From contig CBDFJR010000005.1 of assembly GCA_965248535.1 (NCBI GenBank), forward strand, positions 928,001 to 992,000: a stretch of DNA of 64,000 bases. The letters are read 5' to 3'. The position numbers were made by a program, and so were the translations under genes. This document shows positions 2,839 through 10,770 of the stretch, piece after piece (positions within the stretch are counted from its first letter, which is position 1; each line of letters starts with the position of its first letter). The notes beneath the pieces were generated by a model, which did no database searches, was not told the origin of the DNA, and worked only from the letters and a program-made list of their open reading frames with translations. The stretch is from Phormidesmis sp. (GTDB lineage: Bacteria > Cyanobacteriota > Cyanobacteriia > Leptolyngbyales > Leptolyngbyaceae).

Positions 2839-2926
2839 ACATAACGACCCCGTTCACCCGCCGCTAGGAACCTTTTGGACTCACCGACTCACTTGATACG
2901 GTCGGTGTGCAACGGGATTGTCATTC
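2839..2926 (-). other. attC-like recombination site 5 (one core degenerate, GTC instead of GTT)
   Basis: ACATAAC-GACCCCGTTCACCCGCCG...CGGTCGGTGTGCAACGGGATT-GTCATTC; arms nearly identical to 6944-7031; lies 7 bp past the stop of the 2934-3245 gene. Confidence 0.8.
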
Positions 2927-2933
2927 GATGCTT

Positions 2934-3245
2934 CTACTCAATTTTGGATTGTCTCCAGTGCTTCATCTCCTCATCAGTAAAGTGACTAACTAAATCCCGA
3001 TACATTTTTTCAATTGCATCTGCATTTAATCCTTCCTCTTCTGCCCAGACTCGACGCTGCCCTAACATTGCGTGAAAGCGTTCAGGTGCTTTAACGGTAG
3101 TTTCACTCGTCTTGAATTTAGAGGCAGCTTTGACATATGCGAAACGCTGACCAAGTAGAGCAACAACTTGACGATCTAACCGATCAATTTCGGCTCGAAT
3201 ATCCGCCATATTTCCACATTGATTAGGTGTCTTCATAGTTTGCAA
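2934..3245 (-). CDS. Chorismate mutase / isochorismate-pyruvate lyase (PchB-like)
   Basis: MKTPNQC..MADIRAEIDRLDRQVVALLGQRF.YVKAASKFK..APER..ML..RR.WA. Confidence 0.88.
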   Translation of the reverse strand: MQTMKTPNQCGNMADIRAEIDRLDRQVVALLGQRFAYVKAASKFKTSETTVKAPERFHAMLGQRRVWAEEEGLNADAIEKMYRDLVSHFTDEEMKHWRQSKIE

Positions 3246-3364
3246 AGTTGAGTGATGAGGCTAGTTTTCAACTTGAATCGAGAGTTCACACAACACTGGA
3301 AAATTCACCTGTGTTTTGAAGACTACCCCAACCCGCAAACTTCGCCTTCATGAAGTTCGGGGCA

Positions 3365-3697
3365 TTATGATAAAGCAAGCAGCGATAAACTTTCATCTGC
3401 ATGAAATAATTTGATCGCTTCAAAACTCTGACGTATAAAATTCTCAACTTGCCATGTTGAACAGTTTCCCAAGCGAAGCCAAATAACTTTTGGTGGATTG
3501 CCAAATACTAAGCTCAAATCGTGCATATCCGCCTCTTTTGAGACAATCATCAAATCGTTGTCTTTTGCATAATTCCAAACGATTGGATCGATTGTTGCCT
3601 TCATTCCCACATCTCGAACCTGAAGCGAATTTAGGAAAAGATCGTCCAGACGGTTCGGTAACTTTGGCGACAAGTTTTCATCAAAAAGTAATCTTAT
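3365..3697 (-). pseudogene. DUF5615 PIN-like toxin with mutated start codon (ATA)
   Basis: (I)RLLFDENLSPKL..IVSKEAD..GNPPKVIWLRLGNCST; the expected ATGA overlap with the upstream antitoxin reads ATAA. Confidence 0.75.
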
Positions 3698-3924
3698 GCA
3701 GATAATGGAGGAATCATTAACCGACGCTCACGGGCAGCAGCATAAGCAATACAGGCTTTTAAGTCTTCCCGCGTCAGATCGGGAAAATCGTCAAGAATTT
3801 CTGCTTCAGTCATCTCGGAAGCTAGGTGCTAGAGTACCTCATAAACCGTAATTCTTAAACCACGTACACAAGGTTTCCCACCCCGTTTATCAGATTCAAT
3901 TGTGATAAAGTTTTGGTAGCTCAT
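3694..3924 (-). pseudogene. DUF433 antitoxin with internal stop
   Basis: Hand translation: MSYQNFITIESDKRGGKPCVRGLRITVYEVL*HLASEMTEAEILDDFPDLTREDLKACIAYAA. Confidence 0.85.
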
Positions 3925-4029
3925 AGTTAAAATCACCTTCATTAAATAGCTCTATTATAAGGCTTCGTCAGTCACAATCAGCACCAACAGAGGCTTTTTA
4001 GACTACTGCCCCAACCAACAGCCTGAGCC

Positions 4030-4115
4030 GCTGAACGTTCCGGTTGAGCGGTGACAAACCGAACTGGAACGAAGTGCAAAAGCTTTACTCATCCGCTCCA
4101 ACCGGATTGTTAGCT
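4030..4115 (-). other. attC-like recombination site 4
   Basis: GCTGAAC-GTTCCGGTTGAGCGG...CCGCTCCAACCGGATT-GTTAGCT, an imperfect palindrome with a bulged base; overlaps the end of the 4085-4330 gene. Confidence 0.82.
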
Positions 4116-4330
4116 GTCTGACGCTGAGCAATCCGCATTAACAGGCGCAATGCTTCGTTTACAGCTTCTTCGTTAGGAAATGCTTTGGCAACATCAGGAT
4201 CTAGAAGGACAAGATTAGTTCCTGCTCGATAACGCTCTACATATTTCCCCCTAATTCCTCCCGCTAATTGGGAAAAGTCGTACTCAGGTCGTAATTCGTC
4301 GTCCATCTCATTGTCAATCTCCTTCCTCAT
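4085..4330 (-). CDS. BrnA-like antitoxin
   Basis: [37 protein letters not shown]; overlaps the BrnT gene. Confidence 0.8.
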
Positions 4331-8249: not shown

Positions 8250-8456
8250 GATTCAAGCCTATTGATAGAATGAGATGCCTTAGAAGCTGCTGAGATAAGA
8301 GTTATAAAATCAAGACTCAACCTCACTCTGCTGTATAGAACAGGAGATAAAATGAATCAGCTTATTAACATAAGCTCTGCAATTTAGGAAATGATTGCTC
8401 TCTAGGAGTAACTGAATCAAAGTAGAATTACTACCTTGGAAACCTTGTAATACCAA

Positions 8457-9005
8457 TCACCAGTCCTTCCTTGGAAACTCAAGATCATGTGTTGCATGGC
8501 TTGGATCTTTGTCTAGATATCTTTGTTGTTTTATTCGTAAGTCATTTTCCCTAGATGGCTCATCAGTCCTCAATTGACTATCCTCTCCACTTTTAGAGTT
8601 TCCCCCTCCCATGTTTCTAAGCATAAAAATCAAGCCTGAGGACAGGAAAGAGAACGGCTGCTTCAGAAAAGTTTTAACTATTGCTCCAAGAATATTAGCT
8701 GGAGATGGTTCAATGTTTTCATAAATTAGGCTTTGCCTTATGAAATAGACAACAAACACAATAGCAGCTAGTAGCCCAATCCAATGCCAATTAGCCCATG
8801 CCTGGATAATCAGAAAGATATAGAAAATCCAACGTGTTTTGTCGCTAAATGAGCTTAATACCCAGAGACCAATAACAAAAAATGCAGCGACAACATTACC
8901 GTGTGGAGCAAAGGCGTTATAAATTACGCTGTACACAACTAATGCGACAGCAGCGCCAATATGCAGGTTTCTTCGTATGATTTTCATGATTAGGTAGGTA
9001 AACAA
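8457..9005 (-). CDS. Hypothetical membrane protein
   Basis: Several hydrophobic segments and a charged tail; start uncertain. Confidence 0.65.
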   Translation of the reverse strand: MFTYLIMKIIRRNLHIGAAVALVVYSVIYNAFAPHGNVVAAFFVIGLWVLSSFSDKTRWIFYIFLIIQAWANWHWIGLLAAIVFVVYFIRQSLIYENIEPSPANILGAIVKTFLKQPFSFLSSGLIFMLRNMGGGNSKSGEDSQLRTDEPSRENDLRIKQQRYLDKDPSHATHDLEFPRKDW

Positions 9006-9190
9006 ACGCTAGTTTGACTGGTATCAAGAAAAAATTATTCGGCTTGATTCTGATGTCACGGAACCGATAGCAGGTGTGTTCTTCAATACAAAGTTCCTCA
9101 ATTTTCATCTAGCTGTCTGAGCATCTATGAGATTGAGTTTGGGCAGCGACAGATAAGCATCAATAACTGCCCCCACCGATAACTTAAGAC

Positions 9191-9275
9191 GCATAACGGT
9201 TGCAATCACCGGACTCAGATATCTTCTGCTAGCACCAGTATGCTTCAAAGTTCCGGTGCATTGCGATGGTTAGCT
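9191..9275 (-). other. attC-like recombination site 1
   Basis: GCATAAC-GGTTGCAATCACCGGA...TCCGGTGCATTGCGATG-GTTAGCT; 7 bp past the stop of the 9283-10599 gene. Confidence 0.88.
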
Positions 9276-9282
9276 TTCGCTT

Positions 9283-10599
9283 TCACAGGTACGGTTTAAG
9301 CTGCTTAAATATTTCATTGGTTTCATATCCGGGTAGTTCATGAATACGGCTCTTTAATATCTCAGATTGGTACTTTGTTGGTGTTGTAAAGCTCCGATTG
9401 TAATTAGAAATCCATCTTTTTACTTCCATATCCACTCTTTGAACAAGTTCAGCTGAATTAGGCGAATTTATTAACCAGAGAAGAAACATTACTTGATCCC
9501 ATTTATCCCGAACTCTATTGAGAGAAAAAGCACATGATTTCATCACAGGATTAGAATCAACAGAACACAAATCTATTAACTCTGGTTCGCTCAATCTCAT
9601 TCTAGCTTGCCGCATTAACCTTGCTGACTCCTTAGCTACACCTGGAGAAGTATCTCGTATCCCAATAGTAAGATATTGTTCAGATTTCTCTCTGTCTAGT
9701 CTAACTAATGCTTGTAGGCTGGCTTTTCGCAGACAAGAGTATTCACTTTTTAGATACTCTGATATAGCACTTATTGCCGCAATACAATTAATTTCAGACA
9801 ACCCTAACAATGCACTTCTCAATTGTCTTAACTTACTTTGCTTCGCAGATAGCTTTTGCAAATACAGACTCTGAACATCAACACTTATTTCAACTAATTT
9901 CTTGACAGCAATTTCTCTGATCGAAGCGTGACGGTCAAATGCAAATAATTCAAGAAGATTTTTAGAAGTGTCTGAAAATCGATTCAAAGACAATAATAAG
10001 GTTGTACGTCGGACGGGCATAAATGGATCTTGAAGACCAAATTTCATGACTTCTTTCAGTTGATCATCCGCAAGCAAATTAAACAAATTAGCTATAGTAG
10101 AGCGAACTACAATGTCATGACTGCCTATGCAGTGGAGTACGATTTGGTATGGCTGCAACAGCTGATGATCGATGGTTAAGTGCAGGCAACAACGCGCCAC
10201 AAGGGGATTAGCACTTGTGCACCCATCTACAACTTTCGCTTTATTCTCTCCACTAAGTAGAAACGATTCAACGGCTGTGATTAGCTCGCTATGATCGTCT
10301 CTATAACAATTCTCAAGATGATAAATATTGGGCAGCGCATCGATAAACGCCAATGCGTTTTCTTCGATTAACAATTCTTTAAGTGCTGTATATGAAGCAG
10401 ATCTTACCTGTGGAACCCAATCATTTGCCCGTTTAATGAGTATAGGAAGTGTGATCGAAGTGCCAACCAGCCCCAATTGACGAACTGCCTTTTCTCGTTC
10501 ATAGCCGTTCCAACTATCTGCCAGTTTCAGAAGCTCATCGATACTCTTCTGCTTGTAGAACCATTGATGCCACTTTTTCAAAAGCCCTCCTCGACCCAC
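9283..10599 (-). CDS. HEAT-repeat protein
   Basis: NGYEREKAVR.L..RANDWVPQVR, DPFMPVR, DRHASIREIA, DTSPGVAKESAR helical repeats; GTG start uncertain. Confidence 0.8.
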   Translation of the reverse strand: MGRGGLLKKWHQWFYKQKSIDELLKLADSWNGYEREKAVRQLGLVGTSITLPILIKRANDWVPQVRSASYTALKELLIEENALAFIDALPNIYHLENCYRDDHSELITAVESFLLSGENKAKVVDGCTSANPLVARCCLHLTIDHQLLQPYQIVLHCIGSHDIVVRSTIANLFNLLADDQLKEVMKFGLQDPFMPVRRTTLLLSLNRFSDTSKNLLELFAFDRHASIREIAVKKLVEISVDVQSLYLQKLSAKQSKLRQLRSALLGLSEINCIAAISAISEYLKSEYSCLRKASLQALVRLDREKSEQYLTIGIRDTSPGVAKESARLMRQARMRLSEPELIDLCSVDSNPVMKSCAFSLNRVRDKWDQVMFLLWLINSPNSAELVQRVDMEVKRWISNYNRSFTTPTKYQSEILKSRIHELPGYETNEIFKQLKPYL

Positions 10600-10608
10600 T
10601 GATGTTGA

Positions 10609-10770
10609 GAAAGCTAACTACTATTTCTGCCGTTTGAACTCCTATCAAACAGGATAAATGCCTCTCTCAGGGAAATTATGCTGTATGCAAACCGGATAAC
10701 GCCCATTATTTTAGGAATTATACTGAATTTCCACAGGATAACTCTCCGATTTCGGGTAATTATACGGAAT
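10609..10770 (-). other. Putative attI-like site with three 42-bp phased direct repeats and possible cassette promoter
   Basis: Minus-strand GTTAGCTTTC (10618-10609) has no attC arm beside it. GGATAA at 10652/10694/10736 and AATTAT at 10674/10716/10758. Minus-strand TATAAT at 10717-10722 and 10759-10764. Confidence 0.6.

Follow-up and report, generated by a model that had tools for sequence, protein, structure and literature searches.

The window analysed here, a stretch of 64,000 nt on contig C5 of the 5.03 Mb genome of a Phormidesmis sp., contains between positions 2839 and 10614 an array of at least five minus-strand gene cassettes, each of which would end in an attC site; the plus strand is the recombinogenic bottom strand of these sites. 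It is very probable that this array is a CALIN (a cluster of attC sites that has no integron integrase), most likely serviced in trans by the integron integrases (IntI) encoded on another contig of the same genome, C2, with cassettes entering at a conserved 300 bp element, here called the head. A preliminary description made from the sequence alone had recognized attC/cassette architecture and proposed a CALIN, and this is borne out by the presence of the same family of sites beside intI, by the boundaries between cassettes, by single cassettes found elsewhere in related genomes (labelled G001–G010) and by a cassette that is precisely missing from a contig of one of the runs compared (labelled X1–X14).

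The five sites are 85–88 nt long and lie on the plus strand: site A at 2839–2926 (starting ACATAAC, ending GTCATTC), site B at 4030–4115 (GCTGAAC, GTTAGCT), site C with its 5' part at 4955–5034 (GGCTAAC), site D at 6944–7031 (GCCCAAC, GTTATGC) and site E at 9191–9275 (GCATAAC, GTTAGCT). Site A, the last of the array, is 83% identical to site D. The imperfect palindromes bounded by AAC and GTT that the preliminary description had listed are thus all where it placed them, including the one at 2839 with its GTC right box; four are intact, and the one at 4955 is cut after position 5034, where it ends in TTGT, by a 700 nt group II intron, beyond which its remaining 5 nt (5735–5739) complete a right end that reads GT-intron-TGGGC. 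Its observations on the surroundings of the sites also held. The end of a site is separated from the stop of a minus-strand open reading frame (ORF) by 7–8 nt, or, at 4030, the site overlaps the stop by 31 nt; every cargo ORF is on the minus strand; the GC content of the array is 42.5%, compared with 51.4% in the remaining window; and the 9.8 kb from 1841 to 11619 hold two octamers of the highly iterated palindrome HIP1 where 13.2 are expected (Poisson P about 2e-4).

The sites have the general form of attC, RYYYAAC...GTTRRRY around an imperfect palindrome of about 57–141 nt (GTC in site A). In alignment and folds, 1–3 bases of the 3' arm stay unpaired and a 1x1 loop lies beside the R box; these are at most candidates for the extrahelical bases that set strand choice. 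A covariance model built solely from the five sites (R1) scored them, from A to E, at 83.8, 81, 61.6 (the truncated site), 91.4 and 83.5 bits, and in the 64 kb window the best unrelated match reached 16.5 bits and the weak opposite-strand echoes of the five sites up to 19 bits. In the whole genome R1 gave 47 matches at E<=1, representing 45 distinct places, and these include arrays beside both intI genes on contig C2. Little sequence is conserved among the five sites beyond a terminal AACG and, at the opposite end, ATTGTTA, and compensatory change is seen at 13 of 25 predicted pairs in an unfitted MAFFT alignment. When 23 sites from this genome and four relatives were compared, 87.8% of cells paired, against 71.9 ± 1.3 in shuffles, and 66 cells were double-compensatory, against 23.1 ± 3.4 (0 of 500 shuffles reached either value); double changes occurred in 11 of 20 pairs, and pairing fell to 29–49% when the pairing partners were slid. 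This larger alignment was fitted to the model and somewhat favours structure. An Rfam search of positions 1–20000 at E<=1 returned three intron families only and left the palindromes unmatched. The five window sites are members of an attC family whose structure has been kept.

The preliminary description had called for a search of the genome for a tyrosine recombinase of the IntI type, and such a search, with the IntI-specific model TIGR02249, which covers the IntI-specific insertion, found two full-length, stop-free genes on contig C2. These genes, intI-A and intI-B, score 465.7–467.9 bits against a cut-off of 265 and cover profile positions 1–313 and 5–313 of 315; XerC and XerD models remain far below their own cut-offs with both proteins, whose translations show the box motifs of tyrosine recombinases. 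Beside intI-B lie five R1 sites (38.9–63 bits) on the strand divergent from the gene, and beside intI-A one site (54.4 bits) on the strand expected for a divergent layout. The statement that the array lacks an integrase therefore holds for the window, in which tblastn with both IntI proteins found nothing at E<=1, and for contig C5, on which TIGR02249 had no match, but not for the genome, with its two intact-looking intI genes. Because the R1 family stands beside two intact intI genes on another contig, the window array, with five sites and no intI, is a CALIN in a genome with two complete integrons, rather than itself a complete integron, in which intI would adjoin attI and the array. IntI above cut-off was present in 17 of 31 genomes sampled from the genus, family and class, the window's genome included. 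Between the start of intI-B and its canonical attI (locus L009, 3600–3760) about four tandem units of about 40 nt with internal dyad symmetry were seen by eye, and the intI-A locus has different repeats at the matching position; these repeats may be regulator binding sites.

In a cassette array the next cassette contributes the 6 nt behind each crossover, and these must therefore complement the inner box of that cassette. In the window the boxes agree at seven of seven positions from the head to site E, from E to D and from D to C (across the intron), and at six of seven from C to B, so that four of the five cassettes obey the rule. Genome-wide, 14 of 27 adjacent pairs in 11 arrays are perfect, whereas shuffles gave a mean of 4.0 and a maximum of 11 (0 of 20000 reached 14); one site (C5:2445327) was mis-parsed in this test, and reading it by eye would give 15 of 27.

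Differences of the size of a cassette are found between organisms. A contig of run X3, which carries another organism label and comes from another study, joins position 9193 to 10615 with 4 nt (TAAC) shared, so that the cassette with the HEAT-repeat gene (9194–10614) is exactly absent and cassette D abuts the head. The contig comparison used runs X1–X4; X5–X14 hold small shares of the window and were left out. A joint from 4113 to 10614 in X2 was not used, as it has a side of only 22 nt and may come from a paralogous array, nor was a back-joint from 6930 to 4034 in X4, which has a depth of 2. The relatives lack the window's array, and single cassettes occur elsewhere in them: the cassette encoding PIN, Phd and GNAT proteins is present in G007 at 85% identity with the same 5' boundary, directly beside a canonical attI without intI. 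The mutL gene next to the array has matches in seven of seven genomes of the genus (79–86% identity), and the match stops at about 1864. Homologues of a neighbouring gene, at 85–88% identity, bear names suggestive of Phormidesmis.

The head and the orf123 module

The preliminary description had ended the array at 10770, a position that falls within the head. The junction box AGCTAAC (10612–10618, plus strand) opens an element conserved over 10615–10913, and immediately behind it lies a second unit, the orf123 module (10914–11620, plus strand), with a promoter-like TTCCAA-17-TACAAT, a hairpin at 11152–11197, a terminal hairpin, a possible 39-codon ORF (11058–11177, plus strand) and an ORF of 123 aa, orf123 (11194–11565, plus strand). 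The stretch 10613–11590 is repeated, with 19 blastn hits in the genome and dozens in relatives of the genus. Nine of the 19 hits include the head, i.e. that of the window and those of eight other arrays, and all nine heads end at an identical YTAAC junction against unrelated flanks. All nine also face an attC array of matching strand, eight as detected by R1 and the ninth through an intron-bearing attC recognized by eye. The boxes from head to first cassette are perfect in five of eight arrays, compared with an average of 0.81 in shuffles, of which 7 in 20000 attained five; in the window the junction agrees with site E at seven of seven positions, and it is at the same TAAC that the X3 contig is joined.

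The head is not confined to this genome. Ten copies were found in G001–G003 and none in G006; two of the ten stand at contig starts with the array side cut off and were left out, and the eight that were examined all have the same junction. The five with at least 2.5 kb of flank have correctly placed attC matches, and the three with 1.7 kb or less have none. Head and junction together are conserved across species at 69–81% identity. Read on the cassette strand, the head has three direct GTTATCC repeats about 45 nt apart, each following TATAAT or CATAAT, and it holds sigma-70-like matches pointing into the array, which are matches to the consensus only.

In attI1, direct repeats that have a GTTA core lie upstream of the crossover. 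The head shares this arrangement, it is non-palindromic, and its junction with the first cassette falls at G|TT, where the cassette brings in its own half of the box, all as in an attI. It differs from an attI in that it does not stand beside an integrase that would be its cognate, occurs in nine copies per genome and is unrelated in sequence to the attI of the genome's own integrons. The possibility that it is an odd attC was dropped because the head showed no fold beyond shuffles and no R1 match, even at E<=10 with filters off. Nor is it what is left of an integron at this locus, as the term 'decapitated' in the preliminary description had implied: neither head nor window contains an IntI remnant, and the head is unlike the canonical attI. 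What a truly decapitated integron looks like can be seen elsewhere in the genome (C5:797.4–798.1 kb), where a canonical attI, which matches the one beside intI-B at 98% over 244 nt, and an orf123 module are kept and an intI of about 0.9 kb is cleanly missing; the same state, with canonical attI and no intI, is found in G007. Since such a decapitated integron keeps its canonical attI, the head of the window is a different thing, and we read it as a probable attI-like landing site used in trans.

The orf123 module accompanies more than heads. There are 17 near-full-length copies in the genome among the 19 hits, with 85–93% identity, of which eight have no head, and a copy directly follows the stop of intI-B; a module likewise follows intI in G001, G002, G003 and G006, making five such loci in the genus. 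Public homologues of the orf123 product number 406 (82–96% identity, all unnamed), and its distant relatives comprise just 13 representative clusters at E<=0.001 among 1.84 billion. Neither Pfam nor NCBIfam places the protein in a family, and none of its Atlas neighbours exceeds 0.77. Its AlphaFold 2 model is confident (predicted local distance difference test score 88.3), and the best Foldseek match in the PDB (E 0.046) and the best wide VIA-align match (Z 4.5) are not significant, which does not in itself show a new fold. Judged by the company that the gene keeps, the product may have an unrecognised accessory role in the recombination or regulation of integrons, and it represents an orphan, confidently folding protein family linked to integron platforms.

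A group II intron in site C

The intron that interrupts site C (5035–5734, plus strand) occupies the bottom strand of the attC, in an orientation opposite to that of the cassette genes, and is 700 nt long without an ORF. It matches Rfam families RF02001 (127.8 bits), RF01998 (63.7) and RF00029 (43.5), all above their gathering scores, and represents a complete group II ribozyme. It splits the site at TTGT|T, the next exon base being T, and when the exons are joined they restore a GTTGGGC box that is the reverse complement of the left box of site D at seven of seven positions. The intron-less form of site C exists, as a contig joint from 5033 to 5734 in X1 and X2 and also in G007.

Within the genome the intron family comprises six copies that are 100% identical over 700 nt, one at 98.6%, one at 85% and one 130 nt fragment, together with a single ORF-bearing relative (contig C2, 1673018–1675015; locus L008, 5019–7016), which is 79% identical over the first approximately 450 nt (a 455 nt alignment) and is the sole maturase-domain match in the genome. 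The nine members that are full-length or ORF-bearing all follow an attC 3' arm, eight at an intact (T/A)TGT| junction and the ninth at a mutated one, and in all nine the 3' exon starts with T; directly upstream of members R1 gives six strong matches and one weak one. The reverse transcriptase gene of the ORF-bearing relative is split by a tandem duplication of about 70 nt (L008, approximately 5800–5925) into frames of 172 and 325 aa, which score 98.9 and 286.8 bits against TIGR04416. Its best match in a plasmid collection was at 68% identity, on a methanotroph plasmid, followed by ltrA genes at 53%; the one ltrA match that was examined (H4) is flanked by cassettes of a class 1 integron and runs antisense to these. 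At least nine places in G010, a member of the same family with an 8.6 Mb genome, match the intron at 84–87% identity, several of them with an upstream attC arm, and the intron family is therefore abundant beyond the genus.

Group IIC-attC introns encode a class C reverse transcriptase without an endonuclease domain and form a monophyletic attC lineage. Their target is the bottom strand of attC, where they insert at TTGT/T in antisense orientation to the cassettes, and CALINs are among the places where they occur, as summarised in PMC3001079 and PMC7923331. The intron of the window shares this target, the antisense orientation and the CALIN setting with introns such as S.ma.I2 (as portrayed in PMC3001079), and is IIC-attC-like by target and orientation; unlike S.ma.I2-type introns, it has no ORF and yet is present in six identical copies. 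Proliferation of ORF-less group II introns with a reverse transcriptase acting in trans has been reported, in outline, for a thermophilic cyanobacterium (PMC2882425). The present case resembles those introns in having multiple ORF-less copies in a cyanobacterial genome, which implies mobilisation in trans, and differs in that every copy is in an attC site, the abstract of PMC2882425 not reporting attC targeting. A full-text search of the literature returned no description of an ORF-less attC-homing intron. Site C would thus have been invaded, after the array had formed, by an ORF-less derivative of an attC-targeting intron of the group IIC-attC-like kind, inserted at TTGT|T and antisense to the cassettes, and the derivative would have had to rely for its mobility on a reverse transcriptase provided in trans. 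It offers a natural case of an attC-homing intron that is without its ORF and is nevertheless present in six identical copies.

Operation and origin of the array

Integrons have been reported in Cyanobacteria since 2007–2008 (PMC2426708), an IntegronFinder survey of 2016 includes the phylum (PMC4889954) and a cyanobacterial attC model exists (PMC8352920); the preliminary description had suggested that integrons have been little studied in this lineage, but cyanobacterial integrons and attC sites are already in print. According to the same survey, CALINs are unexpectedly common and mostly without integrase remnants (PMC4889954), and that they can be mobilised in trans is the standard view as presented in 10.1101/2025.06.18.660453. 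Measured against the summary in PMC4889954, the window array is like other CALINs in that it has two or more attC sites and lacks an intI close by, the reported average being about five sites, and also in its lack of resistance genes, the presence of IntI in the same replicon set and the insertion sequence (IS) remnant at its edge. It is unlike CALINs as described there, which have no conserved head, in that it and eight other arrays of the genome start at one head, followed by orf123. A bare CALIN is known in cyanobacteria; what sets this one apart is the recurrent non-attC head, the orphan gene that accompanies intI and the burst of an ORF-less attC-homing intron.

Our working model is that IntI-A and/or IntI-B service the array in trans, which is the most likely arrangement, and we infer that they act on its sites and its head at present. 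New cassettes would enter at the head, its conserved double-stranded junction playing the part of attI, possibly as a dedicated site, and cassettes would leave by recombination between two attC sites or between head and attC. The head probably also supplies outward promoters for the array. Beyond this, it is possible, if still somewhat short of an even chance, that the genus runs a distributed integron, in which one or two integrases act in trans on many satellite platforms (head, promoters and orf123) with the ORF-less attC-homing intron spreading among them; if so, most CALINs here would be working satellite platforms and not debris.

A number of observations weigh against the model. At the level of the sites, single-site DNA folds, a check that the preliminary description had proposed, surpass shuffles by a modest margin only (over both strands of the four intact sites, z -0.81 to -2.86, site E being best at -2.86) and are weak evidence alone. 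The boundary from B to A fails, with three of seven positions; the distal cassette, with the GTC box of site A and an in-frame stop in its DUF433 gene, has probably undergone fusion or decay. The X3 joint is a single contig with a depth of 3.37 and a side of 29 nt, and runs X1 and X2, which contain 0.87–0.89 of the window's words, may be the source sample of the assembly and so not independent of it. As for the head, its boxes mismatch those of the first cassette in three of eight arrays, none of its nine copies adjoins intI, blastn against both intI loci gave only chance-level matches of 20–25 nt and hence no likeness to the canonical attI, and its fold is not significant against shuffles on either strand (z -1.05 and -0.25). 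Finally, both IntI proteins could be inactive despite their open frames, and the genome's only group II reverse transcriptase gene is interrupted and thus no evident source of the intron's mobility.

The main rival to reading the head as attI-like is that it is an accidental hot spot of the attG type (GWT) within a multi-copy element, at which arrays grew by off-target insertion. Insertion of cassettes at non-att GWT sites has been put forward as an origin of small CALINs in the bioRxiv preprint 10.1101/2022.09.11.507474, and the proposal would account for the missing sequence likeness to canonical attI and for the eight near-full-length orf123 modules that have no head. We nonetheless think it unlikely, though not greatly so, since no empty, cassette-free head was found among nine copies here and eight in relatives, conservation stopping at the same TAAC each time, since heads carry arrays of up to five sites, and since the head has been kept together with its junction across species. 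Should it be a mere hot spot, the locus would be an ordinary CALIN of a phylum with integrons already catalogued. A different view, that the array is a fossil, an old integron which at this locus has had its intI and attI removed or exchanged and whose sites have ceased to recombine, draws on the decapitated arrays at C5:797.4–798.1 kb and in G007, on a complete intI-orf123 pair in G002 that has, at a distance of about 5 kb, a DUF1345 gene with 81% identity to the window's neighbour, and on the decay of the distal cassette (GTC box, in-frame stop and IS remnant). It is made improbable by the first three junction boxes, which are still perfect, by a first cassette that differs between organisms exactly at the crossover, and by two full-length intI genes in a genome whose window holds neither an IntI remnant nor, in the head, a derivative of the canonical attI.

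A comparably low probability attaches to the idea that head and orf123 module form a mobile element which moves whole arrays around the genome. The copy number and identity of the module (17 near-full-length copies here, dozens in genus relatives, 406 protein variants) and the poor synteny around the window in the genus would suit it; on the other hand, neither a transposase nor terminal inverted repeats nor target duplications could be seen, the short form has a ragged left edge, different heads carry different cassettes and the orf123 product has no recognisable enzymatic fold. That the palindromes are ordinary terminators or repetitive extragenic palindromic (REP)-like repeats, as their placement just after stop codons and their capacity to form hairpins might suggest, has practically no chance of being right. 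There is no T tract at the sites and no T-run terminator-like site in 10400–11700, and the preliminary description's caution that identical gene order in related strains would favour terminators does not apply, the gene order of the array differing in relatives; the clustering of the site family beside the two intI genes, the targeting of its members by an attC-specific intron family and the boundary rule refute this rival.

Returning to the array as a CALIN with a probable landing site at its head, what is at stake is the origin and function of CALINs, given that nine arrays of one genome, and others in further species, share a conserved head. The question of where CALINs come from and whether they are alive becomes one for the bench, with two integrases, a canonical attI, the head and a set of attC sites as its material. 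Sedentary chromosomal arrays of the Vibrio type are rich in toxin–antitoxin cassettes. The window array is like them in being chromosomal, in having attC sites related to others within the genome, in its GC content below that of the host and in cargo of the toxin–antitoxin type (BrnT and partner, PIN/Phd, DUF433/DUF5615) mixed with unknown genes. It is unlike them in being small (five sites) and one of many dispersed loci, not part of one large array at intI. Richness in toxin–antitoxin systems is also noted for sedentary arrays in the abstract of PMC7923331.

Cargo and flanks of the array

All genes listed here for the array are on the minus strand. The first cassette, next to the head, encodes a HEAT-repeat protein of 438 aa (9283–10599; Pfam HEAT_2, 1.4e-13). 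Cassette D carries a 403 aa protein with a weak CHAP match below cut-off (7038–8249) and a 182 aa protein of no family (8457–9005). Cassette C carries, by Pfam match, a PIN toxin (5747–6130), a Phd/YefM-like antitoxin (6127–6366) and a GNAT acetyltransferase (6375–6962). This cassette (5734–7004) has a contig depth in X2 of about 150, against 12–15 for neighbouring cassettes, and in X1 of 66 against 28, and the high-depth contig has the intron-less site; the cassette seems also to be present in a more abundant entity of the X1/X2 sample. Next come an 80 aa ORF without a family match (4641–4883), a BrnT toxin (4314–4613; Pfam BrnT_toxin, 1.7e-29) and an 81 aa partner ORF (4085–4330) that has no Pfam or NCBIfam match; BrnT and partner (4085–4613) are read as the two-gene content of a toxin–antitoxin-type cassette.

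The distal part of the array holds a DUF433 gene (3697–3924) split by an in-frame TAG at 3829–3831 into halves that match positions 1–25 and 27–56 of the PF04255 profile, a DUF5615 gene (3365–3673; PF18480, 4.2e-24) and a type II chorismate mutase gene (2934–3245; Pfam CM_2, 4.6e-18). The DUF5615 partner of the split gene is intact, and an 86% identical paralogous block exists in another array (C5:792489–793069). That an attC was lost between the genes for DUF5615 and chorismate mutase, where a short hairpin can be seen by eye at about 3327–3358, was considered and stays a guess only, since the region gave no R1 match and its boxes fail the boundary rule.

At the distal end of the array a 356 nt remnant of an IS630-type element (2398–2753, plus strand), similar to a miniature inverted-repeat transposable element (MITE), has a C-terminal DDE_3 match (E 0.0082) below cut-off. 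Contigs of X1, X2 and X4 skip 2398–2753, with ends TA..TA, and X1 also holds the filled form. The segment has the look of a MITE-like insertion of IS630 type whose presence varies within the population. A gene fragment separates mutL from the array: a 105 aa ORF at 1867–2184 that matches positions 63–131 only of the LysR substrate-binding domain. On the other side, seven tandem 21 nt units, 71–100% identical to the reference copy, occupy 13948–14157 inside short overlapping ORFs on both strands, and a weak R1 match (16.5 bits, E 0.036) is found outside the array at 14394–14484 on the plus strand. Adjacent plus-strand ORFs of 298 and 243 aa at 15008–16655 match positions 1–148 and 171–286 of Proton_antipo_M, and the pair looks like one gene for an antiporter or NAD(P)H dehydrogenase (NDH) subunit split in two.

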